From: Vampirovibrionaceae bacterium NZW_1234
GTDB taxonomy: Bacteria > Cyanobacteriota > Vampirovibrionia > Vampirovibrionales > JAGQHJ01
Assembly (NCBI GenBank): GCA_041697335.1
Contig: JBGUGD010000025.1
Location: 64,001-128,000, forward strand
Direction: 5' to 3'
DNA: 64,000 nucleotides
Below, piece after piece: positions 4,291 through 63,107 of the stretch. The translations under genes and the position numbers were made by a program. Numbering within the stretch: the first letter of the stretch is position 1; the number at the start of each line of letters is the position of its first letter. Under the pieces are notes generated by a model. It saw nothing but the letters and a program-made list of their open reading frames with translations. It was not told the DNA's origin and did no database searches.

Positions 4291-5505
4291 ATGATGCATG
4301 TGACGGGAGTCAATCGGCTACAACGTCCGGTCAAGGCAACTATCGGGAAACGTTCGGAGGGTGTTGCTACTGTAAAAACGCCATTGTTTAAAGGGGGGCA
4401 ATCCGATAAGGTCACCGTCTCCCCTCAGGATATGCCGTTACTATCGACGCCCTTTGTGCCCAGTGCCAAGTGGGTCGAGCAATTGAGAAAGGCAATGGAA
4501 GGCCCGTATGTGGGTCGATACGGCTTTTATTACCCCCGAAATCGCTATAACATCTTAACCGCCCCTATCCATAAGGCGATTGAAAACGCCGGTGTCAAAA
4601 TGACGCGATTTTTCAATGTCGAGGCGAAAATCCCAGATAAAGTCGTGGGCAATGGCCCTGATTTTGTGCCCAAGATGCAGGAAGAAATTCAATACAAGCT
4701 CTATGGCCCCTTGTGGAACATCTACCATTTCCATGGTGCGGTGAATCCCGATGTGGGTGTCGTCGCGGTTTCCGATGGAAAGAGCTTTACGCCGGAAGTT
4801 ATTCGGCGCTTGTCCGAAGGTTTTCCGCCGGTAAAAAGTGCGGCTTTCCCCAAGCTGCTCAGCGATCTGCACGATGAGCTGGTGGCTCACGCCCGGCAAT
4901 TCCCAGGAGAGCTTTCTGTACAGGAGGATAAGCTGGTATTTGCCTCTATTCGACCCGAATTAGGGACACTGGAGCCCCTGGATCGGCCTAACCGTAAAAA
5001 AGTCGGAGGCCCCTTCAAGCTGGAACGGATGCGTGGCCAAGACTATCTTGCCTTGGGGCAGACTCGGCTGGTGACGGACCCCAAGACCCAGGAGGAACTG
5101 CTGGCCCATATTCAGGTGGGTTTCGTGATGACGCCACCCCCCGCGGAATCCGTGTTCAGAAACGGTAATGTCAGGACTTTGGAGCCGCAGTTCCAGGCGA
5201 TGATTCAAGACCACTTGGAGGGACCCATTCAAGAGGCGCTGCAAAAGGTCCTCGAAAAGGATATTCGTCAGGAGGTGCTCTTCAAGGAAGACGGCTATCG
5301 CTTTATTCCCCGCAAGTTTCTGGGCTGGCAGCCTCAGGGCAAAAGCACCCATTGGGCTGATGCGTTGCCGATACCGACCCAAAAAGAATTGGGAGCGATC
5401 CGGGTCACCAGCGAGTCTGGGGAAGAGGAACATTCGGTGACCTTGAAGCATGTGTCCCTTCATTTCATCGACTCGAAGGGGACGTTCTACGGCGCGGATT
5501 TATAA
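4291..5505 (+). CDS. Hypothetical protein with N-terminal leader (PLFKG / DKVTVS)
   Basis: 404-aa ORF with normal composition; no family recognised. Confidence 0.7.
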   Translation: MMHVTGVNRLQRPVKATIGKRSEGVATVKTPLFKGGQSDKVTVSPQDMPLLSTPFVPSAKWVEQLRKAMEGPYVGRYGFYYPRNRYNILTAPIHKAIENAGVKMTRFFNVEAKIPDKVVGNGPDFVPKMQEEIQYKLYGPLWNIYHFHGAVNPDVGVVAVSDGKSFTPEVIRRLSEGFPPVKSAAFPKLLSDLHDELVAHARQFPGELSVQEDKLVFASIRPELGTLEPLDRPNRKKVGGPFKLERMRGQDYLALGQTRLVTDPKTQEELLAHIQVGFVMTPPPAESVFRNGNVRTLEPQFQAMIQDHLEGPIQEALQKVLEKDIRQEVLFKEDGYRFIPRKFLGWQPQGKSTHWADALPIPTQKELGAIRVTSESGEEEHSVTLKHVSLHFIDSKGTFYGADL

Positions 5506-5611
5506 GCACCCGGGCGCCGAGGGTACGCTGTGACATTTCTTCATACTTTGTCATGCATGCCGCTTGAGGGCCTTTCAATCTAACGGATATGCAACAAAGG
5601 AGTTTTTAGAG

Positions 5612-6133
5612 ATGATCCCTACCCAGCTTCGCTCCGGGTTCACCCCACCTCAGTTCAATGCCGGTGCTCGTACCAAGGCCCCCAATCACGTTGCATTTCG
5701 GGGTGCCACCGAAACACCGTGGGAAACTGCCGCGGGCCTGTTGGCCGATAATGCCGCCAACTGGTGGGTAGGCCGGATGAAAGAGTCCAAATACTATAGT
5801 GGCCATCCCACGCCGGGAAAAGGTCGGCTGATCAATGACGAGGAGTTGGGGAGATTCGCCGATTCACTCAAAGAACTTCTGAAACAGCGGTTTTTAAATC
5901 CCCAGGCCCAGGACGGCACCTTTGGCGTGACCGTTGAGATGGAATACTCGCCTTTCGGTATCCTGAAACAGGCCCTTCAAAACACCCCCATCGATAACGC
6001 CGCCACATTAAAGCTGATGCTGCCCTATAAGACCGGCATGACCATTAAAGACGGCACCATTATTGCCCACAGGGCCTCCGGTAAGGACGAATCTGTCTAC
6101 ACCCTGCCCGATGGCTATAAAGAGCTGCTTTAG
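5612..6133 (+). CDS. Hypothetical protein with N-terminal leader (VAFRG)
   Basis: AAGGAG SD precedes ATG 5612, in frame with the listed ORF starting at 5564. Confidence 0.7.
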   Translation: MIPTQLRSGFTPPQFNAGARTKAPNHVAFRGATETPWETAAGLLADNAANWWVGRMKESKYYSGHPTPGKGRLINDEELGRFADSLKELLKQRFLNPQAQDGTFGVTVEMEYSPFGILKQALQNTPIDNAATLKLMLPYKTGMTIKDGTIIAHRASGKDESVYTLPDGYKELL

Positions 6134-6153
6134 GTCGCTGATTAGATAAATAC

Positions 6154-9593: not shown

Positions 9594-9719
9594 AAGAAAC
9601 CGTCTGCCTGTTGCAGGATTTTAAGGGCCTCCCCGTCTCAGGCAATTTCGACGCTTGAGGTGAGTTTATTGCGACACGTGTTTTCCCTTGCATAAACAAC
9701 CTATGAGGCCCTGTTCTCG

Positions 9720-10514
9720 ATGCCCCACGTCGCTTTACGTTTTTCTGCCCATTTTATTCAAACCACGGCCCGAGGCCTGAAACTGAAGCCGGAGGATGAA
9801 AAGCTTTGGCATGACACCGAGTTTTTCAGTCCGGGGTCATTTTACCGGCATCTTGGCGATCTGCGGGAGGACATGCCTGCCGGGACATCGATTTTCTCCA
9901 ATGCCTGCTCCACCGGGGAAGAGCCGCTGTCGGTGGCCATGATGCTGGTGGATCGCTTTGGCCCGGAAAAGGCAAAAGAAACGACCATTCATGCCATGGA
10001 CATTGGTGAGCAGGCCGTCCGCCAGGCTCAGAGTGACACGGTCTATGTCAACCACCAGGAGCGCCTGAATAGCCGAGACTGTTTATCCGGGGATATTGCA
10101 GACTTCCTGGATCCGATTGAACAGCAAGAGGATGCCTCTCGTCCCATATTACAGTCCAACAAACCGGCACAACCCCACCGCCTGAAGCCATGGTTTCGAG
10201 ATATACTGCGCAGTGGGCTGCTTCAGGTCAAACGCGGCGATGTGCGAACGGATTTGGCTCCCCCGTCGGATCAACCGGCCATTGTCCTGTTTCGCAATGC
10301 ATGGCACTACCTCAAGGACAAAGAGCGCACGGATCTGATTGGCAAGCTCTTTCAAACATTGAAATCCGGCAGCGTCATCGGGGTCGGCCATCTGGAACAG
10401 CAACGTTCCGGCGAATACGCCACCAAGACACGCCAAAGCACCGTGGAGTTGCTGGAGCGCGGTGGCTTTAAACCGATGACCAAAAAGAACCCGGTCTTCT
10501 TTGTAAAACCCTAG
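9720..10514 (+). CDS. CheR-like SAM-dependent methyltransferase (catalytic domain only)
   Basis: TEFF, ACSTGEEPLSVAM, IHAMDI, LFRNAWHYL, LKSGSVIGVG match CheR motifs; the N-terminal helical domain is replaced by a short leader. Confidence 0.8.
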   Translation: MPHVALRFSAHFIQTTARGLKLKPEDEKLWHDTEFFSPGSFYRHLGDLREDMPAGTSIFSNACSTGEEPLSVAMMLVDRFGPEKAKETTIHAMDIGEQAVRQAQSDTVYVNHQERLNSRDCLSGDIADFLDPIEQQEDASRPILQSNKPAQPHRLKPWFRDILRSGLLQVKRGDVRTDLAPPSDQPAIVLFRNAWHYLKDKERTDLIGKLFQTLKSGSVIGVGHLEQQRSGEYATKTRQSTVELLERGGFKPMTKKNPVFFVKP

Positions 10515-10913: not shown

Positions 10914-10920
10914 GACGGGT

Positions 10921-11388: not shown

Positions 11389-11627
11389 AAGTCACCTCTC
11401 CTAACCTACTTTTATTACCGAGAAAGACTCTAGATCAAACACACGTGGAAGTCGACCGAGGAGTTTTTATGATGCAATATCGGGCGATTTAATTATTTTT
11501 TCTGAGAGATCATGAAAAACATGGTCTATTTCTTAAGCTGACTTATTTAAATCTTAAGCGTATTTAAAAATCAAAAGCCCAGGTTTTTATCCTAGAAATG
11601 GCTGGACAGTACATTGGAGGGAAAGTT

Positions 11628-13481
11628 ATGGGCTGGTTTACGCATGGGTTCACAGGTTTGTCTGGAAATCAAGAACTGTGGGGCAACATAGCCACAAGCC
11701 GTGGGGAAGCCGACAAGAAAAAAAAGAAAGATAATACCTATTCGGCACGTCAGGACTATAAAAGCAATTCGGCCGTCAAATTATTGGAGTTGGATCACGA
11801 CATTGAAAAGTTGGCGCAGGCGTTGACGCAAAAAAAAGCATCCCAACAATCCATTGCCGAAGACTTTAATAAGACCGGTAAATTGCCGGAAGAAGTCAGA
11901 TGGGACGTTTTACGCGAGATTCTCAATGATCCGCAGGTCAAGGCGAAAACCGACGCGATGATGAAATTGGAATCGGAACTGGACACCAGTAATCAAGAAA
12001 AATTTACCGCCACATACCAAGCCGAGCTATGGGAAAAATTGGTGAAAGAAAAAAAGGATCAGCCCTTAGACCAGATTTTAAAGGGGTTTCTGGAAGAAAA
12101 ACGACAAATACAAGCGGAAGCGCCCAAGCGGCGAGAAGCCCTGGAGTTGGCTAACGTGAATTACGCCAAGGCACAGAAAGAATTTGAAGCCGCCCGAAAT
12201 GCCATCCCTGGAGACGAATGGTTCAATAACCCCGAGCGTGCGCGTGAAAAAATAAAGCCTCAGTCTGAGAAGTTAAGTGAGGCCACACGGGATCGGACTA
12301 TGGCGCAACGTGCAGTCATTGGTTCTGGGCTAAGAAAGACAGCCATTGAACGTGTGGAAAAAGAGTTTGCCGGTCGGGTTCTAAATGCTCCTGCCGACCA
12401 GAAACGTGAGCGTATTCAAGCTGTGCAAGACGGTTTTGCTTTAGAAATAGAACAAAAAGAGAAACAAACGCAGAAGATCTCTGACGCCCTTCAAGCCCAA
12501 TATAAAGCGTTTGACGAGTTCCAGGCTCAACGCATGAAAATTATTCGTAAATTGGATAAAAATGAAGCGCTGACACCGGAGGAACGAGCTTTTACAAAGC
12601 CATTTCTGGAATCGTATTTCCCCAAAAATATACAGGGGTTAGAAAAAGAAAAGCGATTTTTGACCGAGGCCAAGGGCTGGGTCAAAGACGGCAAAATCAA
12701 CGATTTACGCTTAAATGCCGATAAGCCCAAACAAGCCTGGCCGAAGAATTTTGCCGTGGCGACGGCCACCGGCCAGCGTCATATGGCTTGGGGAGGTTTA
12801 TATATGGATTCGGTTTTCAACCATTTGAAAACGGAAAAGAGTCTTCCGGCTGCCATTCGAAAAACAGAGCAGGCCAATAGTATCATCCATGATGTTGAAC
12901 GCAACGGCACGCCCCAGGGCAAAGCCTATCAGGTTCCCGTGTCCTCTACACGTCCAATAGAGGGGTGGAAGGTTTTTGGAGAAGAGAAAACACTGCCCCC
13001 GAGAAAGATACTCTATATTCAAGGGGGTACCAATCCCAATGAAGATCCGGCACGATTCAATCGGGAATATGCGGCCTTCGACAGAAATATCCGACATCAC
13101 TTCGGTCCTGCCGTGGAAATCCTTCGAGTCAAAGAACCCACGTTCAAGCAAGTGGATGAGGCAATAGAATTCCTGGCAAAAACCAGCGATGACAAAACCG
13201 AGGTCATGATTTTCATGTCCGGTCATGGCAGTGCTTCAGGCTTAGAGGAAGGGCTCACAGAAGAAGACAAGCTCAAAGAAGGCAGCCAAATCGGTTCATT
13301 TATGCTGAAAGGCCCAAGTAAGGACAACCCCAATGGCGAATTCCTGAGTGAGACTCACCTGAAGCAGCTGACCCAAAAACTGGCTCACTGTAAATCCGGG
13401 TTAATAATGATCGACAGCTGTCACTCCGGGGCCTGGATTGCAAAAGACACACCGAGAAAAACCACTGTACAGCCTACGTAA
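11628..13481 (+). CDS. Coiled-coil protein with C-terminal caspase-like (C14) peptidase, apparently circularly permuted
   Basis: GGAGG SD before ATG 11628; catalytic dyad motifs FMSGHGS and MIDSCHSG; about 350 aa of K/E/Q-rich helical N-terminus. Confidence 0.8.
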   Translation: MGWFTHGFTGLSGNQELWGNIATSRGEADKKKKKDNTYSARQDYKSNSAVKLLELDHDIEKLAQALTQKKASQQSIAEDFNKTGKLPEEVRWDVLREILNDPQVKAKTDAMMKLESELDTSNQEKFTATYQAELWEKLVKEKKDQPLDQILKGFLEEKRQIQAEAPKRREALELANVNYAKAQKEFEAARNAIPGDEWFNNPERAREKIKPQSEKLSEATRDRTMAQRAVIGSGLRKTAIERVEKEFAGRVLNAPADQKRERIQAVQDGFALEIEQKEKQTQKISDALQAQYKAFDEFQAQRMKIIRKLDKNEALTPEERAFTKPFLESYFPKNIQGLEKEKRFLTEAKGWVKDGKINDLRLNADKPKQAWPKNFAVATATGQRHMAWGGLYMDSVFNHLKTEKSLPAAIRKTEQANSIIHDVERNGTPQGKAYQVPVSSTRPIEGWKVFGEEKTLPPRKILYIQGGTNPNEDPARFNREYAAFDRNIRHHFGPAVEILRVKEPTFKQVDEAIEFLAKTSDDKTEVMIFMSGHGSASGLEEGLTEEDKLKEGSQIGSFMLKGPSKDNPNGEFLSETHLKQLTQKLAHCKSGLIMIDSCHSGAWIAKDTPRKTTVQPT

Positions 13482-14433: not shown

Positions 14434-14635
14434 TTCCAGCCAATCCGGACAGGGGCAATTGGATTCTCTTTGAAGTACTGCGTTTCTGGACGACCTGATA
14501 ATGTGAGGATCACCGGGTCGTTCATTGCAATATAGATCCCAAGGATCTGATGAGGGTACGTCATGGGATGGCGTCTCTGGTATACTGCTGTCGGCACCGG
14601 GTGTGTCGGTTGCGTCTGTTCGGAGTGTCGTCAAC

Positions 14636-15082
14636 GTGTGCGGTGGTTTTTCCTATCAGCCCAAAGAGGCCAAAACGGGCCACGAAACGCCCAAGAAAAT
14701 CTATTTCCCCATTCCCTATGCCCAGATCCCCATTCTGTCCGGGGACGGCGATATTCGTATGGTGCAATGGGGCAAACGCAAAGGTGAGGATGAGGAATTC
14801 GATGTCCCCCAAACCGGCTGGGCTCGCATCGAGAGCCTGGTCGCCCATAAATGGGACAAATATCATCCCAGTCGTGTTCGTATTCCTGCGTTAAGCTGGA
14901 TGGAGAAAGATCCCGCACGTGACTCCCACTGGTTTGATTTGCAGCCGGATCAGTATCTGCTGGGTGTTAAAATCGAAGTCCCGGAAAAAGCATTTGTGTA
15001 TGTGGTCACGAAACCGGCCACAGAATGGTTTAAGCCCATCCACGATCGGGAACCCATGGTGGTCGGTCCTGAACAATCCTGA
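14636..15082 (+). CDS. SRAP-like (SOS response-associated peptidase/HMCES) protein
   Basis: GTG start after GGAG gives M-C-G-G, matching the SRAP N-terminal Cys; also WG, ARIES, RIPA..WMEK, VVT.PA, IHDREP. Confidence 0.75.
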   Translation: MCGGFSYQPKEAKTGHETPKKIYFPIPYAQIPILSGDGDIRMVQWGKRKGEDEEFDVPQTGWARIESLVAHKWDKYHPSRVRIPALSWMEKDPARDSHWFDLQPDQYLLGVKIEVPEKAFVYVVTKPATEWFKPIHDREPMVVGPEQS

Positions 15083-24789: not shown

Positions 24790-24827
24790 TAAATCGGGTG
24801 GAGCCTCTGAGTGCTCCACCCGATTTA
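24790..24827 (-). terminator. Stem-loop downstream of 24865-25359
   Basis: 15-bp perfect inverted repeat TAAATCGGGTGGAGC/GCTCCACCCGATTTA. Confidence 0.75.
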
Positions 24828-24864
24828 CTAAACGTTGATGTCGTTGGGGAAAGGAAAAAAACAG

Positions 24865-35577: not shown

Positions 35578-35622
35578 TAAATAGAGCCGCTTCGGCTGGT
35601 AAGGTAATAGGGCTCTATTTTA
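35578..35622 (+). terminator. Hairpin after paralog 1
   Basis: TAAAATAGAGCC...GGCTCTATTTTA inverted repeat. Confidence 0.5.
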
Positions 35623-45571: not shown

Positions 45572-45728
45572 TAATAAATCCACGAATATCATAAATTGTC
45601 TTGCAAAATGATATTGTAAATATATATTCACAAGTTAACACAATTGATTGTTAATAAAGTTTTAATACTTATAAGAGATTAAGAATTTTTCATGAATTCG
45701 GTGGAGCAGGATAAGGAATCGGAGAGTT

Positions 45729-46895: not shown

Positions 46896-46990
46896 AAGGC
46901 TTTAATTTCTTCCATCCTAATAACGTATTTATTCTTATATAATTGAATAATTGAGAGTAAAATTTGTGGTTTATTTATGGGAGTGACTAG

Positions 46991-47983: not shown

Positions 47984-47986
47984 TTT

Positions 47987-51040: not shown

Positions 51041-51263
51041 TATCCATTCTCTTACTGCGGCATCAAGGTTAATGAACCAGGATTGTGTATGAAAGTTAAA
51101 AAAAAAAGGCTATCCAAAGTGCGTGAATTGACACCGTATATGAAGAATTATGAATTTTTGATGGCATGTTGAAGAATTGCCTGCCCCCACCCTCGGTATT
51201 TTTGATGCGCCATTCTATAATAGAGATTAGTAGTATCAGTTTGAATCTGCGAAACGGTATTCT

Positions 51264-52262: not shown

Positions 52263-52465
52263 CGCGTAACGAATTCTTAAAAAAATTGCTTGACAGGAAT
52301 TCTGTTTATTTAATGAATACTCAGAATTTCTCAATCAAGGCTTTTCTTCTGAAAAAGATTGCAGTAAAAAGGCCCAGATTTCACGGAAAGTAGAGACCTA
52401 TCCAGCTTAAATTGAAATATTTCTTTACGAAAACGCAATTTCCAAAGTGTAGCAACTTAATTCCA

Positions 52466-53665
52466 ATGTCCCAAAGACAATCCCCTCTTTCCCCCACCAA
52501 CACGACCTTGGAGTTTAATTGCATGATGGAAGAATATAGGTTAAAACCTGCTTCCGGCTTAAAAGAGAAGATATTAATTAGTTTCAAGACACTGGCAATT
52601 CTCTTGATACTGGGTATCTCCCTATTGGCAACGACACCGCTGGTATCATGGGCAAATCCTTCACCTGAACAAGTTGAGCTACAAACCATCCAGGGGAAGA
52701 TTGAGTATAACGATAACAACTACCGTGTTGGCCCTGGGGATATTTTAAGTTTTCAAGTCTATCACCAGCCGGATATGGGACAAGCCGATATTTTGGTACG
52801 ACAGGACGGCAATGCGAGCTTTAATGGCATTGGCGAACTCAACGTCGCAGGGTTGACCGTGGATGAAATTACCCAAGCGTTATCGTTCCGTATCGCTGAA
52901 TTGGTTCGGGACCCCATTGTCACGGTAACAATTTCTCAAACGCGACCTGCCACAATATACTTAGCCGGAGCGGTACTTCACCCTGGCATGTATCAGATGA
53001 ATACGAACCAGGCTAAAGGGGTTAATGCAGGCACAACGGCCAATGCCCGTATCGATATGCGGGTGTCCAATATTTTGGCCAACAGTGGGGGAGTGCAACT
53101 CAATGCGGACTTGACCAATGTGGAAGTCCGACGGGGTGGAAAAATTAGCGAGACGAAACGAATCAATCTATGGAAAGTTTTAAAAGAAGGTGCCCGGGAA
53201 CAGGACATCTGGGTCCAATCCGGGGATACCATTTATGTTCCAGCCCTAGACAAAATTGCGATGAGCGAGGCAGATTACAATCTGTTACTCTTGTCTGCCA
53301 TTGGGCCTGGAACATTTCCAGTTAGGGTTATTGGTGAGGTGAATACGCCGGGTGTGTTCGACCTTGGTGGCACGTCCCCTTATCTGGCTTCGGCAATTGC
53401 CAAGGCTGGTGGGTATAAATACAGTGCCAACAAGAAAATGATCGCCATCCGGCGTTTTACCCCCAATAACAGTTCCACAACATTGTTCGTGGAACCGGAA
53501 AAGGAAGACGTAACTTTAAGGCCGAATGACGTGATATTTATATCCGAAAATAAAATTTATGCTGCTGGGCGCTTTATGGAGACCGTGTCCAAAGTCTTTT
53601 CTCCCATTACCAGCGCGGGATCTGCATTATTCTCGTTCGGCTGGATTATGGGCGCAGGGAGGTAA
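52466..53665 (+). CDS. Wza-like polysaccharide export protein (start uncertain)
   Basis: YRVGPGDIL, VRQDG, GEL.VAGLT, SLBB repeats (GAVLHPG; GEVNTPG; AIAKAGG), LRPNDVI. Confidence 0.9.
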   Translation: MSQRQSPLSPTNTTLEFNCMMEEYRLKPASGLKEKILISFKTLAILLILGISLLATTPLVSWANPSPEQVELQTIQGKIEYNDNNYRVGPGDILSFQVYHQPDMGQADILVRQDGNASFNGIGELNVAGLTVDEITQALSFRIAELVRDPIVTVTISQTRPATIYLAGAVLHPGMYQMNTNQAKGVNAGTTANARIDMRVSNILANSGGVQLNADLTNVEVRRGGKISETKRINLWKVLKEGAREQDIWVQSGDTIYVPALDKIAMSEADYNLLLLSAIGPGTFPVRVIGEVNTPGVFDLGGTSPYLASAIAKAGGYKYSANKKMIAIRRFTPNNSSTTLFVEPEKEDVTLRPNDVIFISENKIYAAGRFMETVSKVFSPITSAGSALFSFGWIMGAGR

Positions 53666-53670
53666 TATAA

Positions 53671-55779
53671 GTGACGTATTCTTTTATTCCCCTTCGGTAT
53701 GAGCGAATTACTTTTTTACCTCAGGAAAACCAGCCCCAGTCCCCATTAAATGCAGTGGTGGATACGCTAGCCCATGAAATTCCGCAACATCCTCAGCAAG
53801 ATGATGAGACGGAGCCTGTATTGTCCGACACGGATGTGAGTGAAGTTGTGAGCAAACCTGCCAGTATGGATAGGGAGCTGGTAGATGATGAAATATCAAG
53901 TATTGATGAGGAAAGTATTAAATCACCCTCCCCGTATCAAAACGCCGAACAACCTGCATTACCAGGAACCTCTCAACAGCAAGATGCCTCTTTGGATCTT
54001 ATTGTCGATAATACCCCGTATCAGCAGGATACTGAAAGACCCTTAAGCTGGTTTAAACGTCTCAGACCGGACTTTCGCGTTGCTGTAGTTCTGATGCTTA
54101 TTGTCTGGGGATGGGCTTTGATTTATGGGTGCTTCGGCTATCAGCCCAAATATGTTTCTCATTCAATGGTGCTGATTAAAGATTCAGCAATTACTGGGCG
54201 CTATGTTTTACCGGATCAATATTATGCGTTGCAAACGACCTCGTCCAGTGCTGCAAACCCTGTATTAAACACGATGGGGCTTTTAAAATCTGAATCCATC
54301 TCCAAGTCACTCTGGCTCTATTTCAAAAACAACCACCCGGAAGAATTGAAGCGCCTTAAGATTAAAACGTATGCCCAATGGGAAACCATGTATGGTACTG
54401 GTAAAAGCTACATCAAATCGAAGAATGAGCCGGGCACAGACTTGATCTCGGTTTATTTTACCTGGAACGACCCTAAAATGTCTCAGGAAGGCTTAAATGT
54501 TATTTTAAAAACGTTCAGTGATGCCAGCCTGAAATTGAATAAGGCCGAACAACGTAATCGCAGCAAATATCTCGAATACCGGGTTAAAGAGATAAATACC
54601 CAGTTGGAAAACCTGCGCCGGGAGAAGCGTGAATATAAAGATCAGGTTGGATCCATTAACTCGGATCCGAAAAATGAGGAACTGATCAAGGCCCAAATAG
54701 AAATTTCCAACCGTCTGAGCAGTACGTTGGCAGCAGCCGATGGAAAAGAGGCAGAGTATAAACGTTTTCAAACCATGTTGGGAATGACGCCGGAAAACGC
54801 ACTGACGGCGTCTGCAATTGGCCTTAATCCAACATTGTCCAAACTGCAAGATGACTACTATAAACTTTCTCAAAATTATGCCTTTGTCAAAGCCAGCTTA
54901 ACCGATAAGAATCCCAAAGTGCGTGAATTGCATGCCCAATTGGAAGAGATCGAGAAAAACCTCCGCTCGGAAACCGGACGTACTTTAGGGAAAGAAAGTA
55001 TCGCTTCACAACCTTCGGCAGCTGTTTCCGACACGACACGCGCCAAGGTAGTCAACCAAATGGTATCGGCTCAAGCTGAAACAATGCGGCTTCGTGCAGA
55101 GGCAGAAATCCTCAGTCGTCGTCTGGATGAGCTCAACCGACAAATTGATATTTTACCCACTGTGGAAGAACGCTTAACCAATATTGACGAGCAGGAAAAG
55201 TCATTGAGCAATGCGCTGTTTACGTTGCGACAAAAACAGTTGGAAGCACAAATGAAGGAAGCTGAAACGTTGAGCAACGTATTTATTGTGGATGCTCCCC
55301 ACTTGCCACGTAAAGAGAAATTTCCTAACCGCATTGCTGTTGTCTTACTTGGCATATTGGCCGGTATTGCTTCCGCTGGAGCTTTTATCGGCATTGCAAG
55401 AGCGGTTAGAGAAGCCTCCGGTAGTAGTTATTTATTGACGGTTTTTACAGGCCCTGCCGAGAATAATACAACAGCCCATGTTTTGGATAATGCTCATTCC
55501 GACTTTCAGGGACAATCTCACTCATTGTCCTCTCCTGTATCACCGGCTCTCATAGAGTCGAAAGTCAGAAATTGGATCTCCACCAATAACGATATGGACC
55601 AGTATCTTGATGACTTGTTTGACGGTAAACAGAACCCCAATGCTTCTGCTCACAATGCCGTAAGAGAGCAAGTATACTTATCGCTGCGCCACCAGACCCA
55701 GAGTTCCGCAAATCAATCTTCCTCACACGATGAAAAACAGAGTTTGGAAGAATACAGCCCTTCTCATTCCTTCTCCTAG
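53671..55779 (+). CDS. Wzc/GumC-like polysaccharide co-polymerase without kinase domain
   Basis: Two TM segments flanking a long coiled coil (LTDKNPKV; IVDAP.LP...FP). No Walker A in the C-terminal tail. Confidence 0.85.
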   Translation: MTYSFIPLRYERITFLPQENQPQSPLNAVVDTLAHEIPQHPQQDDETEPVLSDTDVSEVVSKPASMDRELVDDEISSIDEESIKSPSPYQNAEQPALPGTSQQQDASLDLIVDNTPYQQDTERPLSWFKRLRPDFRVAVVLMLIVWGWALIYGCFGYQPKYVSHSMVLIKDSAITGRYVLPDQYYALQTTSSSAANPVLNTMGLLKSESISKSLWLYFKNNHPEELKRLKIKTYAQWETMYGTGKSYIKSKNEPGTDLISVYFTWNDPKMSQEGLNVILKTFSDASLKLNKAEQRNRSKYLEYRVKEINTQLENLRREKREYKDQVGSINSDPKNEELIKAQIEISNRLSSTLAAADGKEAEYKRFQTMLGMTPENALTASAIGLNPTLSKLQDDYYKLSQNYAFVKASLTDKNPKVRELHAQLEEIEKNLRSETGRTLGKESIASQPSAAVSDTTRAKVVNQMVSAQAETMRLRAEAEILSRRLDELNRQIDILPTVEERLTNIDEQEKSLSNALFTLRQKQLEAQMKEAETLSNVFIVDAPHLPRKEKFPNRIAVVLLGILAGIASAGAFIGIARAVREASGSSYLLTVFTGPAENNTTAHVLDNAHSDFQGQSHSLSSPVSPALIESKVRNWISTNNDMDQYLDDLFDGKQNPNASAHNAVREQVYLSLRHQTQSSANQSSSHDEKQSLEEYSPSHSFS

Positions 55780-55813
55780 TTCACAGGCACATTAGACTAA
55801 CCGGGTAGTTCCA

Positions 55814-57364
55814 ATGTCACGTTCGATGGTTACCGCCATAAAGCCGATTCAGCTGCTCAGTCCTCAGCAGTGTCCCTGGGTGTTGGTTATACTCTTGGGT
55901 GTATTGTTGCCAGTTATTTGTTATTGCTTGCTTCCGAGTCTGGGTGTCGAAGTTTTTCAAGAGAATTTGACATTAAATCATTTTGCCTTAGTGCTTTCAG
56001 CAATCATTGGCTGTTTACTCTATGTCCGGTATTTTCAAATTGTACTGACGTGCCCCGAAATACTTATGTTCGCCGTTTTAGTGGCCTGGCCGCTGATTGA
56101 ATGTGGTAATCAATATCTAATGCAATTGGCCGGAATTAACATTCACTTTCGGTTATTTGTAACGCTGCTGTTGGTGTTACCTGCATGTTGTTACTTTATC
56201 TTGTCATCCAAAGTGTTGGTACGCGTTCTACCCTATTTGAATATGTATCTGGTGTTTTACGCATGTCTGTTTGCTTATACGCTGTTCTATAATGCACATG
56301 CCGTTGATCCTCGGTGGGCACAGGAAGGTTCCTGGTCTGGGGGAGGGATTGATACGGTTCAGGCAACCGCGTATCTGAACTGCCTGGTGTCCATGGTGGT
56401 TTGTGCGGTTGCAATCCTGAGACATCCGAATGTCACTCACCTCTTTGATCGTTTTAACCGACTCTTCCTTGTGGTAACGGCCTTGACATCTTTGGTCGCG
56501 ATTGTTGGGTATCCATTTGGCTTTCTAAGTATGATGCTGGATGGCTTTAATCGCTCCTTTGGTATTTTTACGCAGCCAAACCCGTTTGCCCATCATCTTG
56601 GCATAGTCTTACTCTATTCGCTGGGCTTGTATTGCTATTATCAAGGTTCAAGGCGTATTCGTATACCAACATGGCTGATAGTTTGTAGTCTGGTTTTGAA
56701 TTTGTTGGCTTTTCTTTTAGCCCTCTCTAAAACGGCAATTGCATTACTGTTGGGATGTGGCTTCTTGCTGTTTGCGCTCAATCTGTCATCACCTGCTGTC
56801 AGACGGGTATTTGTACGACTTGTTCTGGCTTTGCTGGTGATGGTTCCCGTCGGTTTGGTTTTATTTCAGATTATTACAGAGCGCAGCTTTTTAGAACTCA
56901 TTCAAGCTCGCCTGGAACAAAAAGAAAGTATGAACTGGCGTCTTCAGATCTGGCAGGATCTGCTTGGCAGCATTGATCCTATCAACACGCTTTTTGGTCA
57001 TGGATTTACCTCTGCCAATACCTTGGTTTATCAAATGTCCTATAATGATCGCAAGAACGCTCAGCCGTTGATGTTGGTTCATAATGGCTATATTGCTTTG
57101 TTTTACGATATGGGGGTTCTGGGGCTCACACTGTTTATCAGCGCATTCATGTTAATGGGGCAAGCCTTAAAACGATATTGGGAAGCTGCATACCAGCAAA
57201 GCCGACCGCTTTTGACAACGGTTATTGTATTAACCATTTATTTTTTAGTGGCATGCGGTTTTGATGAAATGACCTATATGTTCGATGCCCCAATACAGTT
57301 CTGGTGTTTGTCTACCATACTCACCTGTGTGGCAATTCGAGAAGCTGGAGTTAAAAACTCATGA
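55814..57364 (+). CDS. O-antigen ligase / Wzy-like polymerase
   Basis: Polytopic; R..GIF.QPN, S..WR...W, LFGHG, HNGY. Confidence 0.88.
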   Translation: MSRSMVTAIKPIQLLSPQQCPWVLVILLGVLLPVICYCLLPSLGVEVFQENLTLNHFALVLSAIIGCLLYVRYFQIVLTCPEILMFAVLVAWPLIECGNQYLMQLAGINIHFRLFVTLLLVLPACCYFILSSKVLVRVLPYLNMYLVFYACLFAYTLFYNAHAVDPRWAQEGSWSGGGIDTVQATAYLNCLVSMVVCAVAILRHPNVTHLFDRFNRLFLVVTALTSLVAIVGYPFGFLSMMLDGFNRSFGIFTQPNPFAHHLGIVLLYSLGLYCYYQGSRRIRIPTWLIVCSLVLNLLAFLLALSKTAIALLLGCGFLLFALNLSSPAVRRVFVRLVLALLVMVPVGLVLFQIITERSFLELIQARLEQKESMNWRLQIWQDLLGSIDPINTLFGHGFTSANTLVYQMSYNDRKNAQPLMLVHNGYIALFYDMGVLGLTLFISAFMLMGQALKRYWEAAYQQSRPLLTTVIVLTIYFLVACGFDEMTYMFDAPIQFWCLSTILTCVAIREAGVKNS

Positions 57365-58935
57365 CAATGCATTCACGTATTATTATGGGAATGCTGAGCG
57401 GTGCGGGAAACATTGCTGTTAAAACGGCATTGAACATTTTGCTGATTCCGGTTCTTATTTATCATCTCGGTGTGGATAGTTATGGCCTTTTTGTTCTTCT
57501 AATTGGCATTTTAGAAATATCCACGATGTTGGATCTAGGTTTCACAGCGGCTATGGTTAAAGGGTTGGGTGAATATCGGCATGCCAAGCAGGTGAAGAAG
57601 GCACAAGAATTATTGACGATGGGACATGTGCTTTATGGCTTTCTCGCAGTGCTACTTTGTTGTGTTGGTTGGGGGTGGAGTCAGGACCTTATCAAACTTT
57701 TTCATGTCCCTGGCTCTTTGATGCAGGATGCCCATACAGCGTTATTAATCGCAATTGCAGAGGGGGCGATGACATTGTATACCACCTATTATCGCTCAGT
57801 GTTGCTCGTCCATTGTCAACACCAGTGGGTGAATCTCAGTGAGAGTTTGGGATTAATTCTTTCCACCGGGATCGGATTATTGCTGGTTGCTTCAGGACAA
57901 GGGTTGATTGCTTTAATGATCTGTCGTCTTGTTACCGTGGGGTTGCGAACGATTGTGCTGATTTTTCAGGCACATCGAGTGGAGCCATCCGTGCTATTGC
58001 CTCAAGAGTGTCCTAGCAGAAGGACCGTTTCCGAGGTTATTACGACAAGTTTCCATGCCATGATGGTTAACTTGAGCATTGTTATCTCACATAAGATTGA
58101 TACTTTTGTGATTGCGGCATTTTTACCCATAAAAATGGTTGGCTATTTTGAAATTGTTTACCGATTTCTATCCGTTGCGTCACAAGTGGCCGGAAAAGTC
58201 GCTGAAGTCGTTTTTCCGTTGTTCAGTCGCTATGCTGCCGAAGGCCAGGATCACGAAATGCGGTACTTATTCTTGCGCATGAGTTGTGTTCTCAATTTTA
58301 CTGTGGGGATCCTGATTTTAGGCATCTGTATTTTCTACCCTGAGCTTTTCCGTATTTTTTCTGCAGGTAAGATTCCATTTGAACCGACACTGCCTATCCT
58401 GGTACTTGCCATACCCTGTATTTGGAGTGGTGTCCTGCAATTGCCGTCGGGGTACTACCTCTTCGTTTCCGGTCGGCAACGTTACCTAACCCTTACAAGT
58501 ATACTGGCTGCCGTATTTAATTTAGGGTTTAGCCTTCTCCTGATTAAACCCTTGGGCATGCCTGGTGTCATTCTTGGGACATTGATCCCTCAGCTGATCC
58601 AACATCAGGCCGGTTTGATACGACAAACATGTAAGGGATTGGGAATTTCATTTAAAGCGTATTTTGAAGCTGTTTACCAGCCCAATATCTTCCCCCTGGT
58701 TGGGACTGTCTTATGGCTGTTAATGGCAAAAACGGTCATTTTTTCTCCCTCACTAACGTTCTGGCCAGTCGCCTTTGTATTGGCGTCCGGCTTGGTCTTT
58801 GGCACCACACTTTGGTTGGCCTATTGCATGAATGACCATGAAAAAATGTACGTGGAGGTCAATTTCGTCATGCCTCTACAGAAAAAACTGGGAACTCAAA
58901 GGCCATCTAACGATAAAAGGGTGACGCATGGCTAA
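57361..58935 (+). CDS. Wzx-type flippase
   Basis: Polytopic; LG...YG, LDLG, KID..VI, FP.FS. Confidence 0.88.
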   Translation: MTMHSRIIMGMLSGAGNIAVKTALNILLIPVLIYHLGVDSYGLFVLLIGILEISTMLDLGFTAAMVKGLGEYRHAKQVKKAQELLTMGHVLYGFLAVLLCCVGWGWSQDLIKLFHVPGSLMQDAHTALLIAIAEGAMTLYTTYYRSVLLVHCQHQWVNLSESLGLILSTGIGLLLVASGQGLIALMICRLVTVGLRTIVLIFQAHRVEPSVLLPQECPSRRTVSEVITTSFHAMMVNLSIVISHKIDTFVIAAFLPIKMVGYFEIVYRFLSVASQVAGKVAEVVFPLFSRYAAEGQDHEMRYLFLRMSCVLNFTVGILILGICIFYPELFRIFSAGKIPFEPTLPILVLAIPCIWSGVLQLPSGYYLFVSGRQRYLTLTSILAAVFNLGFSLLLIKPLGMPGVILGTLIPQLIQHQAGLIRQTCKGLGISFKAYFEAVYQPNIFPLVGTVLWLLMAKTVIFSPSLTFWPVAFVLASGLVFGTTLWLAYCMNDHEKMYVEVNFVMPLQKKLGTQRPSNDKRVTHG

Positions 58936-59980
58936 TCTCTTTCCGTTGGTGTCGATTATTATGCCCGCCTATAATGCGGCTGCACATATTGCTGAGGCAA
59001 TTGAGTCTGTCTTGGCGCAGAGCTATTCACATTGGGAGTTATGGATTATTGATGATGCCTCTCAGGACAATACTGACTCTGTCGTGTCTCAGTTTCTGGA
59101 CAGTCGCATCCGGTATCATCGCATTGAAAAACAAGGACGTGCCGGTGCTGTTAGAAATGTTGGACTCCGCCAAGCCCAAGGTGACCTGATTGCGTTCTTG
59201 GATGCCGATGATGTTTATTTCCCCGATGCTCTCGAAGCCCTCGTCACACCTTTCAAACTAAATCCCTCTTTGATTGCCGTTTATGGTTTTGCCAACTACA
59301 TGGATGAACATGGCAAACCAATCCCAACGATGGATCTGCTGCGTCCGGATCGTCAAGGGCAGTATCACTTGCCGAAAGGTTATGATCACAGTTGGCGTCA
59401 GATTATTACCGGCAATTTCTCCTGTATGCTGCCCGGCCTGATGCTACGGCGTGAAACCCTGGAAAGAATTGGTTACATCGACGAGACGTTTATCAGTGGG
59501 GAAGATTACGAATTTTATCTAAGGCTTTTCCTGGATAATCATAACCAGGTTCATTGTCTGCCCCGCTATATCTACCGTTACCGTGTCCACAGCCAGAGCC
59601 TGACCAAGTGTCCAGAACAGTATCAGGCGATTTTAGAGAGTTGCCTTGCGATTGCCGACAGTGTTTTTAGTAATCCCCGGATTCCAGATGAAGCTCTCTG
59701 TCATAAATCCATGGCCTATTGGGAATGTTTTCGCTATTTAGCCCGTGAGCGCCTTATTCATGGGCAACCTTCCATTGCAAGACATATTATTCTTCAAGCA
59801 TTCTGTCACCGTCAGGTTGCAACATCGACCTGGCTACTTAAAGGGCTTCCGTTATTCCTACGTACTTTACTGCCAACAGAATTTAATCATCATTTAATCT
59901 CAATTAAATGTAAGCTGAAACCACCTTGCGTAATGGGTTTATCCCGCCTTTCCAACATATTCTCAGGAGGATTGCTATGA
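58928..59980 (+). CDS. Glycosyltransferase family 2
   Basis: VSIIMPAYN, IDDAS.D, RN.GL, FLDADD, EDYE. Confidence 0.93.
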   Translation: MANLFPLVSIIMPAYNAAAHIAEAIESVLAQSYSHWELWIIDDASQDNTDSVVSQFLDSRIRYHRIEKQGRAGAVRNVGLRQAQGDLIAFLDADDVYFPDALEALVTPFKLNPSLIAVYGFANYMDEHGKPIPTMDLLRPDRQGQYHLPKGYDHSWRQIITGNFSCMLPGLMLRRETLERIGYIDETFISGEDYEFYLRLFLDNHNQVHCLPRYIYRYRVHSQSLTKCPEQYQAILESCLAIADSVFSNPRIPDEALCHKSMAYWECFRYLARERLIHGQPSIARHIILQAFCHRQVATSTWLLKGLPLFLRTLLPTEFNHHLISIKCKLKPPCVMGLSRLSNIFSGGLL

Positions 59981-61164
59981 ACGCCCTTATGGCAGCGCCA
60001 ACAAGCACTCCTGGTTTAGGCGAGGTGTATCGGGCTCAGGTGGTCGACAGTCTCCAGGAGTTTGCTCAAATCCGTTCTCATTGGGATCATCTGATCCAAA
60101 ATTCGGGCCTGGACACCATTAACCTCGACTATTTATGGTTAAGTACCTGGATGGAGTCTTTTCCGAATCAATCGCTTTTTCTCATTCTGATTTATAATGA
60201 CCAGGATGAGCTGATAGCAGGTGCCCCTTTAAAGATCAGTCAGTCTCCATCGGGCCTGATGTGTCGACTATTACGCCATCTACAGTTTATAGGAACAGAC
60301 CCCTGTGTATACGATTGGATGGTTTTTCCCATGGTTCACAGTGCCAATGAAGCTCAGGTGATAGAAACACTAGCCAACTGCCTTTTCGAACATCGCACTC
60401 GCTGGGATCTCATGGATTTCAGATATTTGCAAAGTGAAACACAACTAGCGCATCTAAATCGAATCCTTTCTTCTTGGGGGAGACGTACCACACATCATGC
60501 CTCTATGGTGATTCCAACACGAGATCTCCCCGAGACTGTGGAAGAATATGAAGCATCGGTCAAGCATCGGGGATACAAACGTAATTTGAAGCGAATTCTG
60601 AATCAGATTCGTCGGGAGTTTAATGGTGAGCCCGTCGTTGTAGATGTTTTGGAAAATTCTCCCGAAACAATGGAGCAGATCGCCCTGTTTTTCGATCACC
60701 ATCGGACCTACTGGGCTTCCAAAGGCATAAAATGTGACCTGGAACGTTATCCCAATCTAGTCACGTTTTACCACCGTATTTATCAGGGTTTTGCCAAAGA
60801 CTTGAGCAATCCTAACAAGGTTTTATTTACGGTTTTGAAAATAGGAAGCCGGATTATCAGTTATAATTTCGATTTCCTTTCAGGAAAAAGCATTTGGGGC
60901 CACTTGTCCGGCTATGATCCCGCGTATCGCAAATATCGCCCCGGTGTGTTGCATATTGAACTATTGCTGCATTTTTCCATTCAAAATGGAATGTCGCGTT
61001 TTGAGTTTGGCAGAGGCGATCAATCCTACAAAGATCAATGGGCGAACCATCACATTCAACTATGGAATTTGATGCTCTGGAATACGCCATGGGCTTTTCT
61101 TTTCTGGAAAACGGATCAGGTACTCAAAAAATTAGTACGCAAGCCCTTGTTTTCATCGCAATAA
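59977..61164 (+). CDS. GNAT-fold (CelD/BcsL-like) acyltransferase
   Basis: AGGAGG SD; WL.TW, GYDP.Y.KY.PG, FEFGRGD..YK..W. Confidence 0.85.
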   Translation: MNALMAAPTSTPGLGEVYRAQVVDSLQEFAQIRSHWDHLIQNSGLDTINLDYLWLSTWMESFPNQSLFLILIYNDQDELIAGAPLKISQSPSGLMCRLLRHLQFIGTDPCVYDWMVFPMVHSANEAQVIETLANCLFEHRTRWDLMDFRYLQSETQLAHLNRILSSWGRRTTHHASMVIPTRDLPETVEEYEASVKHRGYKRNLKRILNQIRREFNGEPVVVDVLENSPETMEQIALFFDHHRTYWASKGIKCDLERYPNLVTFYHRIYQGFAKDLSNPNKVLFTVLKIGSRIISYNFDFLSGKSIWGHLSGYDPAYRKYRPGVLHIELLLHFSIQNGMSRFEFGRGDQSYKDQWANHHIQLWNLMLWNTPWAFLFWKTDQVLKKLVRKPLFSSQ

Positions 61165-61257
61165 AGCATTACAAACGGCTCAAACTGCGCAATTTTGCTT
61201 TCTCAACAGTATTTATTGATATACAAACGCTATTATGAATTTGTGGATCGTAGGCCT

Positions 61258-62010
61258 ATGAATGCGCATCGAGAAAGTCTGTTGTCTCCTTCGGGAGAAA
61301 CATCGCCCTACTTTGTCGTTGACAATGTCATGACCCATGATTCAAAACACGTCATTCATCCAAGGCGGCTTGAGCAAGAAGCCTTTATGGCCCGAGCCCT
61401 GAAAGAGTCAGGTAAACGGCTTTTTACGCTCCAGGACCTTACAATTCCAGGACTTGATGAAGCTATCCCGTCACAGGATTATGACTACTTGAAGCTAGCC
61501 TTGGCTTGGGTCCAAAAATTCATTATGCGTCCCCACCCCGGATTAAACCGACCCGGTGCTGTCTGTCCTGCTGTAAAGATGGCTATTGATGAAGGGCTGC
61601 TGTATTTCACCGTTGCACATCCTGAGAAAACAGATGAGTACCGATCTGTAGCCGATGAACTGCGTCAATACGCAAAGATATTTCATACTCTTCAACCCGA
61701 AAGCGGAGAGTTAGCCGGTTTGAAAGCCTTTGTTATCTTAATGCCTGAGTGTGAGCCTGCACATTTAACCGACCATAAGGCTACGATGAAGCTTAAAACG
61801 GAGTTACTTCATCAAAACCTTATGCTTGGCCAGTTTTTCCCTATCAATGACCCAAAAGAAGCTTTAAAATCCAAATTTTTTCCGGTACAACCTCCATTTC
61901 CCATTTACAGTATGAGAACCATGTTAGAAAGTGACTGGGTCTTTCTTCAGTGGGAAAACGAATGGCGGCAAATTTATGAAACTCGTTTCGGAGCGTTCCC
62001 ACAACCATAG
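61258..62010 (+). CDS. DUF6875-like protein
   Basis: W...FI.RPHP.L.R.GAVCP.V..A, LMLGQFFP, P.P....R.M...D..FL. Confidence 0.65.
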   Translation: MNAHRESLLSPSGETSPYFVVDNVMTHDSKHVIHPRRLEQEAFMARALKESGKRLFTLQDLTIPGLDEAIPSQDYDYLKLALAWVQKFIMRPHPGLNRPGAVCPAVKMAIDEGLLYFTVAHPEKTDEYRSVADELRQYAKIFHTLQPESGELAGLKAFVILMPECEPAHLTDHKATMKLKTELLHQNLMLGQFFPINDPKEALKSKFFPVQPPFPIYSMRTMLESDWVFLQWENEWRQIYETRFGAFPQP

Positions 62011-62108
62011 AGGGATATTGGGGGATATCCGTGATTTTAGGTGTCACAAAATAGCCATCAGTGGTTTTCATGAACCATAGCGCCATTGTTCCAGTAGGTT
62101 GACACCCG

Positions 62109-63107
62109 ATGATCTTGCGAATTGAGAGCCCATTACACCGCCATTCAACAACACCAACGTTAAAGGTCTCAGGACATTGTGGGAATAAAATCATCGATTC
62201 CGTTCGGTTTTCATCTGAAGCGGCCTCCAGTAAGCGTCGGAAGAATACGTCTGATTTTTTTGGTACGATTCGTTACTACTGGAACCGCCTGACAAAGGGC
62301 TTAGGTTCGATAGTGACCCAGCTCTTAACACGTATTGCATCGTTTTTCGGGTATTCTTCCAAAAACGCTTCTCCAAAACCTGTTAGGCCAATTCCGATTG
62401 AGGCCAAGATCACAGCCACTCATGAGCTTGGGCATGCGCTGTTGTGTCGCGCATTGGGAATATCCATGCATGAGATAAATGTAAAAGGCCATCAAGAATC
62501 CCGTTCTCGAGGTTATGTCGTCCATACATCCGTGGTGGATGCTCCAAAGTCAAAACCTAATACACAGGACTATCTTCGTGAAATTCTTGTTATGGCCGCC
62601 GGGTACGCATCGGCAAAAACGAAGCTCTTTACGCAACTGAACAAAGAACCAAAGAAAAATGAGAACGCTTTATTACAAATTCAACTGGGCCCCATTGGAG
62701 ATATTAATGCTATGCGCGCCGATCTCAAGAAGGCCAGAGAGAATGGCTACTTTCTGGATACCCCGGGATTGGCGAGCTGTGAGCTTGGACCTGCCGCGGA
62801 TGAATCCGAAGTAACGTCCTGGACAAGTCGTGAGGCACAAAACATTTTAAATACCTGGAAATACCCAATTATTTCCCATGCATATCAACTTGCTGCAGAC
62901 GTCATTGCGGCGGTTCCCGTCGAAAAATTTAATGCGATGGTCAAAGATCTGTTTGCCAAGGGTAACATTAAGGGCAAAGAAAAGATTAATGCTTTCTTTG
63001 AACACCATTTGGGAAGGAATTTTAGGTGGACATCAGTACAAAATAAGATTGACCACTACCTGAAGGGACCCCAACACTGGTTTGCACCGAAAGCGACAGC
63101 GGCATAA
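62109..63107 (+). CDS. Stand-alone M41 (FtsH protease domain)-like metallopeptidase with leader
   Basis: TATHELGHAL, GYV, I.V.AAGYA, G..GD. No AAA domain. Confidence 0.7.
   Translation: MILRIESPLHRHSTTPTLKVSGHCGNKIIDSVRFSSEAASSKRRKNTSDFFGTIRYYWNRLTKGLGSIVTQLLTRIASFFGYSSKNASPKPVRPIPIEAKITATHELGHALLCRALGISMHEINVKGHQESRSRGYVVHTSVVDAPKSKPNTQDYLREILVMAAGYASAKTKLFTQLNKEPKKNENALLQIQLGPIGDINAMRADLKKARENGYFLDTPGLASCELGPAADESEVTSWTSREAQNILNTWKYPIISHAYQLAADVIAAVPVEKFNAMVKDLFAKGNIKGKEKINAFFEHHLGRNFRWTSVQNKIDHYLKGPQHWFAPKATAA

Follow-up and report, generated by a model that had tools for sequence, protein, structure and literature searches.

A polar N-terminal leader shared by unrelated proteins

The window analysed here, a stretch of 64,000 nucleotides from the genome of Vampirovibrionaceae bacterium NZW_1234 (C14:64001-128000 of a genome of 3.70 Mb that is 94.75% complete), encodes a series of unrelated proteins that begin with a polar, acid-poor N-terminus whose last residues are [VPLI]-R-F-[GSAQ], in the following termed the RF leader. 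The leader is a lineage-specific N-terminal tag without a signal peptide. Judging from sequence, and with a probability of roughly 60%, it marks proteins for export by a second, flagellum-derived type III secretion system (T3SS) encoded in the same genome, by which some 340 proteins would be routed out of the cell, probably into prey or host. All 11 N-termini that a first-pass annotation of the window had singled out are present, and they were scored against a leader matrix trained on the genome:

4291..4395, + strand: polar N-terminus ending TPLFKG, on a 404-residue protein without a Pfam family; 5.0 bits, a weak score that 7.9% of internal windows reach
5612..5704, + strand: leader ending VAFRG, on a 173-residue orphan; 8.0 bits, borderline (null 1.9%)
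9720..9749, + strand: short leader MPHVALRFSA, on a CheR-like methyltransferase (gene 9720-10514, partial match to PF01739); 11.6 bits
10839..10913, - strand: leader ending TTRFG, on a 121-residue orphan; 10.9 bits
11326..11388, - strand: leader ending RPRFG, on a 155-residue orphan with a strong Shine-Dalgarno sequence; 13.0 bits
13864..13896, + strand: short leader MTIPASPRFG, on a 189-residue orphan; 13.8 bits
16733..16774, + strand: leader ending TRFRG, on a 127-residue orphan; 10.7 bits
23129..23182, - strand: leader ending TPLFG, on a 2018-residue protein with a weak transglutaminase-like stretch (PF13471, E 3.5e-4, below the cut-off); 12.1 bits
34555..34695, - strand: leader ending DSLTLRFA, on the glutamine-dependent NAD synthetase NadE (gene 32263-34695, PF02540 and PF00795); 14.5 bits
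44454..44537, - strand: leader ending PVTFAG, on a divergent GT5 glucan synthase (gene 42741-44537); 11.9 bits
62109..62216, + strand: leader ending DSVRFSS, on a 332-residue HExxH protein; 13.0 bits

Nine of the 11 named cases thus lie far above chance, while the one at 5612 is borderline and the one at 4291 falls within chance. For the M41 peptidase label given to the 62109 protein the one basis is the visible HExxH; the protein has no Pfam or PDB match. The genes named as lacking the leader indeed do so: valS, mrp and cas9 score 2.1, -4.9 and -1.2 bits, cas1 has no Phe in range, and the exopolysaccharide genes reach a maximum of 5.9 bits.

For the genome as a whole, 3238 genes were called with a hexamer model of our own, so that some gene starts are wrong. 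At a threshold of 10 bits, 340 of 3147 proteins, about 11% of the proteome, carry the leader. RFG is the most enriched tripeptide within residues 5-60 of 2858 proteins (156 occurrences against 35 expected). Expectation maximisation (EM) returns a Ser/Pro/Thr-rich, Asp/Glu-poor leader that ends in [S/P]-[V/P/L/I]-R-F-[G/S/A/Q]-[G/S/A], where Arg has a frequency of 68%; overall it is rich in Ser, Pro, Arg, Ala and Thr, and Asp/Glu stay below 3%. Scores of at least 10 bits are attained by 173 of 1622 N-termini, whereas internal windows give 7 and 8 and shuffled N-termini 20-29. The enrichment over shuffled N-termini, which the first-pass annotation had named as decisive, also holds when training and test sets are split by contig (57 of 772 and 54 of 850 N-termini, against 4-5 internal and 3-14 shuffled ones). 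As a null, the share of proteins with an internal window of 57 residues at or above the threshold is 7.9% at 5 bits, 1.9% at 8 bits and 0.6% at 10 bits.

The motif is specific to the reading frame (171 occurrences in frame, 29-49 in the other five frames), and the synonymous codons used for its Arg, Phe and Gly resemble the genome-wide spread. Of 306 genes, 225 have a Shine-Dalgarno sequence before a start that precedes the motif and 31 before a start up to 40 codons downstream of it, which speaks against real starts lying downstream of the motif, although this comparison is partly circular because the Shine-Dalgarno sequence helped to choose the starts. Mis-called starts or a DNA-level repeat as the cause are ruled out by the frame, codon, Shine-Dalgarno and cross-validation tests taken together. 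A Sec-type hydrophobic region occurs in 4.6% of leader proteins compared to 19.6% of 2405 others, in agreement with the earlier remark that a Sec-type core is absent, and multi-pass membrane segments are likewise rarer among leader proteins. Of 306 proteins, 206 have the leader Phe before residue 30, and in 124 it lies no further in than residue 15. A few high scorers (signal peptides, UDG, MqnA) are probably false positives. The proposed kinship with the D-x-V-x-[IL]-S motif of FlgM is not borne out, D-x-[VFIL]-x-[LIF]-S being present in 2.6% of leader proteins and in 1.4% of the others.

Leader-bearing enzymes often have leaderless paralogues

The Pfam scan covered 146 of the 322 proteins with at least 10.5 bits, each at least 150 residues long, and assigned no family to 68 of 120 cargo proteins (E<=1e-7) and to 20 of 26 further ones (1e-5). 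Of 306 strong cases, 193 are without any paralogue; a leader-bearing paralogue exists for 64 and a leaderless one for 67. Leaderless paralogues exist for leader-bearing citrate synthase, GDH, thiolase, ClpP, a ClpB-like protein, release factor, DeoC, IMPase, FtsH, ALDH, guanylate kinase (with two leader-bearing copies), NadD, IDH, aminotransferase, GH77, CinA, PurA and GlgA. The two citrate synthases are 55% identical, the leader copy aligning from residue 58 and the leaderless one from residue 10, and a housekeeping GlgA without leader is located elsewhere in the genome (C26). The idea that the leader was grafted onto enzymes therefore stands in so far as many carriers are extra copies beside leaderless housekeeping paralogues; NadE is an exception, being single-copy, with the window gene as the only one found in the genome. 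Carriers further include several AAA, Clp and FtsH paralogues and an apparent NAD salvage set (isochorismatase-like, NAMPT/NAPRT-like, NadD, CinA and NadE), in which the isochorismatase-like and NAMPT/NAPRT-like proteins, too, are encoded by single-copy genes.

Crude regular expressions for ankyrin, Ser/Thr kinase, F-box, SET, RING, CaaX and PTS1 matched 0 of 340 leader proteins, a comparison of low power because those for ankyrin, kinase, F-box, SET and RING also matched 0 of 2704 others; an LRR expression matched 2 of 340. Since no eukaryote-type domain is prominent by this weak test, either a bacterium or an alga with its organelles could be the target.

Two groups of leader genes stand out by their arrangement. 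At C2:8640-13102 (L138) a leader-bearing AAA protein resembling sigma-54 activators adjoins a leader-bearing, sigma-70-like protein of 719 residues, and the two are candidate exported transcription factors. Leader-bearing DUF444, PrkA-AAA and ClpP-like genes form one run at C5:200162-205961 (L160), a candidate exported proteolysis module. An NTP-transferase family was at first taken for GlgC; this identity was not confirmed and the leader is mostly absent from it, and the candidate was dropped.

A second flagellum-derived export set

A search with the FHIPEP profile finds two FlhA genes in this genome. Set I is a full flagellum. The other set, system II, comprises FlhA, FlhB, FliPQR, FliO, FliH, FliI, FliJ, FliF (with both Pfam domains), FliE and FlgB/C/F/G, as well as an FlgE/G-like gene, a weak FliK-like gene, a FliN-like gene with two SPOA domains and a lytic transglycosylase, which itself bears the leader (14.1 bits). 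Its core export apparatus is complete, with the second FliPQR, FlhB, FlhA, FliI, FliH, the FliJ/YscO-like and the two-SPOA protein as homologues of SctRSTUV, SctN, SctL, SctO and SctQ. No second FlgK, FlgL, FlgD, FlgH, FlgI or FliG-C was found in this genome, each being single, and neither of its two secretins sits in the system II loci. The search for a flagellar T3SS locus that had been suggested uncovered a second flagellar-type export and basal-body set, and a type III machine is the likely reader of the leader. The other machine that had been proposed, a type IV secretion system (T4SS), loses ground, as no PF03135 match (VirB4) was found in the genome at its completeness of 94.75%. The search for chaperones of the CesT family (PF05932) gave no match in G000 (this genome), G052, G053 and G054 with a model that also matched 0 of 14 controls.

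FlhA-II falls below the cut-offs of both FlhA (678 of 772 bits) and SctV (586 of 692 bits, TIGR01399), while FlhA-I passes the former at 863. The closest named relatives of FlhA-II are Gastranaerophilales/Melainabacteria records at 62-67%, by which the genome is assigned to the class Vampirovibrionia. With FliF and the rod kept and the SctV cut-off missed, system II is outside the canonical injectisome family. Nor does it qualify as a second flagellum, since a flagellin, FlgK/L, FlgD, P/L rings, FliG torque domain and stator of its own are lacking.

In order to place this set among relatives (families labelled f1-f11), we built an FlhA tree of 72 sequences, leaving out reading frames of fewer than 600 residues and every second outgroup locus. 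FlhA is present in 59 of 61 genomes, mostly in two copies, and neither f5 genome has one. Flagellin was not found in the f5, f7, f8 and f9 genomes (0 of 8). All six flagellin-less genomes that encode FlhA (f7, f8, f9) fall within the FlhA-II clade (support 1.0), which splits into IIa (f1, f2, f3, f4, f7; 1.0) and IIb (f6, f8, f9; 0.987) and whose deep placement is unsupported (0.215). Across the order, FlhA-II is found intact next to FlhA-I as a clade of its own. FlgI, FliG_C and MotA_N were not found in flagellin-less f7-f9 genomes (0 of 4 each), and two to three rod/hook genes are kept in 5 of 5 flagellin-less genomes.

Genes co-inherited with system II

A gene for a FliA/WhiG-like sigma factor adjoins flhB-II. 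FliA-like homologues occur in 93 of 95 genomes of f2-f4, f6-f9 and f11 and in 0 of 23 f5 and 0 of 2 f10 genomes; IIa genomes mostly have two. The gene found in the FliG position is limited to IIa families (24 of 24 genomes in f7, 9 of 10 in f3, 2 of 2 in f4, 3 of 14 in f2; 0 of 70 elsewhere). The tail of its product weakly resembles FliG N/M (hhalign E 0.028, probability 1.8%) and the protein gives Atlas FliG_M/N clusters at 0.78-0.79, a fold search yielded no clear match, and the N-terminal helical domain is lineage-specific. Stand-alone paralogues of this domain in f7 genomes (e.g. G052:C11:855575-856108) are candidate substrate adaptors.

A family of hairpin proteins of 109 residues is present in 50 of 50 IIa genomes, at 3-21 copies each, and in 0 of 70 others. 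Its predicted fold consists of a helix (3-46), a turn and a second helix (53-108; pLDDT 93), and 42 of 46 members contain PxxP. As read by hand, 17 of 24 f7 genomes have the best copy 5-9 kb upstream of the system II cluster. The hairpin has no sequence match to SctF, and a fold search returned generic coiled-coil hairpins with no needle protein listed; the top match, Chlamydia CT398 (Z 13.1, rmsd 1.6, 108 aligned), and the IpaB N-terminus (Z 12.4) are uninformative. As neither search ties the family to SctF, a needle role is something we can only infer. A conserved gene encoding 270-290 residues adjoins hairpin genes in both lineages (C10:11553-12428, L360; L026:271-1089), a candidate tip or cap protein.

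A promoter-like motif upstream of leader genes

Unbiased word counts show GCAA-N9-TTGA to be enriched 5' of leader genes, and EM widens it to (T)AGCAA-N16-GTTTTAT, located mostly 60-120 nucleotides before the start. At 10 bits the widened motif precedes 112 of 338 leader genes as compared to 169 of 2373 others, and 65 of 269 as compared to 127 of 1411 if long intergenic regions alone are considered. Its class A, GCA-N10-TT[GC]AG, precedes 46 of 338 leader genes and 20 of 2373 others and is spacing-specific. Four promoter-like motifs precede leader genes of the window:

9642..9669, + strand: class A promoter-like motif GCAA..TTGAGG..TTTAT, 78 nucleotides upstream of the CheR-like gene; 18.5 bits
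16647..16674, + strand: promoter-like motif, 86 nucleotides upstream of the 16733 gene; 13.1 bits
23255..23282, - strand: promoter-like motif, 100 nucleotides upstream of the gene for the 2018-residue protein; 13.5 bits
62044..62071, + strand: promoter-like motif, 65 nucleotides upstream of the 62109 gene; 17.9 bits

The related class B has 47 exact copies in this genome; genomes of IIa families have 4-65 and those of other families 0-6 (reversed control 0-5). Among the sites listed, class B lies 317-319 nucleotides upstream of a hairpin gene in six f7 genomes. The promoter-like motif also occurs about 70 nucleotides upstream of one leader gene each in f7 and f4. The structural genes of system II have neither a class A nor a class B motif; early flagellar genes have no sigma-28 promoters either. 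We infer that the motif classes are promoters read by the two FliA-like sigma factors.

Occurrence of the leader among relatives

An earlier prevalence test, with random samples of 80-200 kb and an RF-trained matrix, was underpowered because other lineages word the motif differently. By a wording-tolerant rule, 139 of 2391 genes in this genome carry the leader as compared to 25-31 internal matches. The same rule finds it in 7 of 209 genes of a flagellin-less f7 genome, where shuffling gives a mean of 2.4 and 0 of 50 shuffles reach 7, and in 0 of 185 sampled genes of f5, which lacks FlhA. The leader is seen in four families of the one subclade IIa (f1, f3, f4 and f7), where it recurs on GlgA, ClpP-like and hydrolase paralogues; leader-bearing extra GlgA copies are found in one f3 and one f4 genome. 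In the hydrolase family it is present in 2 of 5 rows in f1, 4 of 8 in f3, 2 of 5 in f4 and 2 of 2 in f7, and was not seen in f2 (0 of 1), f6 (0 of 1), f8 (0 of 1) and f9 (0 of 3). This distribution fits subclade IIa, across few lineages.

Proposed export by system II and competing explanations

If the RF leader is the export signal of system II, a dedicated FliA-like sigma factor would switch on a late regulon, the hairpin would polymerise on the rod as a needle, and the unfolded leader would use its invariant Phe to bind to the export apparatus or to an adaptor, for which the lineage-specific helical domain of the FliG-position protein is a candidate. The delivered enzymes might then rework the contents of the target for the predator, by means of NAD salvage, purine, TCA, beta-oxidation and glucan enzymes, Clp/FtsH proteases and sigma-like factors.

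Several observations weigh against this proposal. All its links are co-occurrences, seen in a small number of related lineages. The wording-tolerant rule was drawn up after some f7 matches were known, and with it the leader is not enriched in IIb samples (f8 4 of 161, f9 0 of 53) or in small samples from IIa (f4 1 of 60, f3 0 of 35, f2 0 of 24). In f5 the hydrolase expression matched 3 of 6 rows, inside the domain or a hydrophobic stretch and without a polar leader. Orthologues of NadE and of the NTP-transferase mostly have no clear motif (it is present in 2 of 9 NTP-transferase loci), and NadE, the NAMPT/NAPRT-like and the isochorismatase-like protein have no leaderless paralogue. The rod genes and hairpins of system II lack the leader, both flagellar FliD copies score 11-13 bits, the Phe often comes before residue 30, unlike the FlhB gate motif, and alongside the negative CesT search in four genomes no translocon was identified. 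Because exact class B is not enriched at leader genes (4 of 338 against 19 of 2373, p 0.5), the promoter link to system II rests on the flanks and spacing that classes A and B share.

Some of these points would be accommodated if the leader were an internal sorting, processing or degradation tag of a life-stage (attack or growth phase) regulon whose proteins stay inside. A shared promoter shows co-regulation and not export, single-copy NadE and other NAD enzymes bear the leader, as do several AAA, Clp and FtsH paralogues. Such a tag is unlikely, since it leaves unexplained the duplicated housekeeping enzymes, the roughly 190 orphans (193 of 306 without paralogue), the depletion of Sec signals and multi-pass proteins and the co-distribution with system IIa. 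The Ser/Pro/Arg/Ala/Thr-rich, acid-poor composition would also suit a mimic of mitochondrial or chloroplast presequences that acts after delivery to the organelles of algal prey, with R-F-S/G as processing site, which presumably resembles the R-2/R-3 cleavage motifs, and the cargo fits organelles (TCA, beta-oxidation, starch, ClpP, FtsH, sigma, release factor). With the Phe no further in than residue 15 in 124 of 306 proteins, many leaders are too short for a transit peptide, and the variant wording of the leader occurs in f7, which groups with gut Gastranaerophilales records; moreover, an export route would still be needed, so that mimicry, which we rate slightly lower than an internal tag, could add to export by system II rather than replace it.

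As for the reader, another machine (Tad pilus, T2SS/T4P, T6SS or T7SS) is a rather improbable choice, ranking below the presequence mimic. The genome does have two secretins, one of them in a cluster at C2:141071-150242 whose gene order, read by eye, resembles a Tad pilus operon; T2SS cargo, however, needs Sec/Tat signals, which the leader proteins lack, and VirB4 is without a match. Least probable of the four is export by the ordinary flagellum (system I), as for Vibrio MakA, system II then being either a second flagellum or one in decay. In its favour, leader-type scores are seen for FliW and for the N-termini of both FliD proteins, two MotA genes are present in this genome, and Di Rienzi et al. 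2013 (PMC3787301) read the partial set as genome reduction. Yet leader proteins exist in f7 genomes without a flagellin, MotA, FliG-C or FlgI match, FlhA-II persists intact beside FlhA-I across the order, and 24 of 24 f7 genomes have kept the gene in the FliG position. Because the leader occurs in flagellin-less relatives, its reader is probably not the ordinary flagellum.

Export by system II would have consequences beyond this genome. It would provide a complete candidate effector list from sequence alone and a separate flagellum-to-injector transition as a direct test case for T3SS evolution, and it would account for the 'incomplete flagella' of gut Melainabacteria; a need for a partner cell would suggest why these resist culture. 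Tentatively, and with less than even confidence, we go further and propose that Vampirovibrionia built an injector of their own from a duplicated flagellum, independently of the injectisome, keeping the rod, replacing the filament by a PxxP needle and using a sigma-28 paralogue and a Phe-centred tag carried by as much as a tenth of all proteins; that predators install metabolic modules (NAD salvage, purine, TCA, glucan) in prey; and that gut Gastranaerophilales are contact parasites or predators too. This contrasts with the view of human-gut Gastranaerophilales as free-living fermenters with a decayed flagellum.

Other genes in the window

27113-31502, - strand: type II CRISPR locus with cas9 (1073 residues, HNH and RuvC), cas1 and cas2
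14525-15082, + strand: reading frame that by its C-terminal motifs we take to be of SRAP/DUF159 type
11598-13481, + strand: 627-residue protein without leader, with a weak C-terminal caspase-like (Peptidase_C14) match
36628-38808, + strand: Lys/Ser/Ala-rich, histone-like N-terminus followed by tandem ClpP-like domains; G006 encodes an orthologue-like protein
44714-61164: exopolysaccharide cluster of lower GC with glycosyltransferases, export and flippase-like genes, without leaders
15325-16458, 23550-26583, 34876-36377 and 45729-46895: low-complexity Pro/Gly/Gln-rich proteins, several with internal repeats

The promoter motif precedes some of the low-complexity genes that have no RF leader (the - strand gene starting at 26583, 20 bits; 45729, 11.5 bits), and their products may be further substrates or surface proteins.

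Comparison with known systems

System II resembles an injectisome in its export gate, ATPase complex, ruler-like and two-SPOA proteins and lytic transglycosylase, in having no motor or flagellin, and in its helix-PxxP-helix candidate subunit, polar substrates without signal peptide and dedicated sigma factor. For an effector regulon under a dedicated sigma factor, the hrp-box-type regulon of Pseudomonas syringae is the comparison. Type III signals are normally motif-less, and a sequence-defined one is unusual. PrgI has PxxP between its helices (PMC2757720). Unlike an injectisome, system II keeps FliF, FliE and the FlgB/C/F/G rod genes in place of SctJ/D. We found neither a linked secretin nor a CesT chaperone or translocon, FlhA-II lies under the SctV cut-off, and about 11% of the proteome bears a signal with a near-invariant sequence motif.

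In Chlamydia trachomatis, N-terminal type III signals direct the export of GlgA and MalQ (Gehre et al. 2016, PMC4829429), which parallels the leaders on GlgA and GH77, the enzymes there acting outside the bacterium; the machine is a canonical injectisome, no shared motif is mentioned in the accessible part of that report, and the cargo here is far wider and often duplicated. Early flagellar substrates carry a gate motif, F-x-x-x-hydrophobic (FlgD 36-FLTLL-40), at least 30 residues into the protein (Bryant et al. 2022, PMC8983047). The RF leader shares with them a hydrophobic residue near position 3-5, a Phe-centred motif and a disordered N-terminus, but reads phi-R-F-G and, lying before residue 30 in most cases, does not have the gate-motif geometry. 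In the predator Lysobacter enzymogenes OH11, which has no filament, flagellar export genes serve to secrete toxic hydrolases (Fulano et al. 2020, PMC7688988). There the genes are a leftover of the sole flagellar set, whereas here an ancient paralogous set stands beside an intact flagellum and has its own sigma factor, hairpin family and substrate motif. The published model of prey emptying by Vampirovibrio invokes a conjugative T4SS (PMC4451040), which appears to be absent from this genome.

Partial flagellar sets in this lineage have been a matter of disagreement (Utami et al., PMC5877343). MEL.A1 has no filament and no L/P rings (PMC3787301), and the genes that Di Rienzi et al. list as shared by Melainabacteria (flgG twice, flgC, fliF, fliH, flhA twice, fliI, flgE, fliPQR, flhB) match system II in content, as does the order of the ACD20 locus tags. 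They are read there as ongoing genome reduction, and the accessible part of the report does not mention a second system, a secretion role or a leader. In the open literature on the lineage we found no description of either the leader or the second system, subscription reports on Vampirovibrio genomes and supplements being outside this scope. What is new here is the second machine, with its hairpin family, sigma factor, promoter and paralogue pattern.

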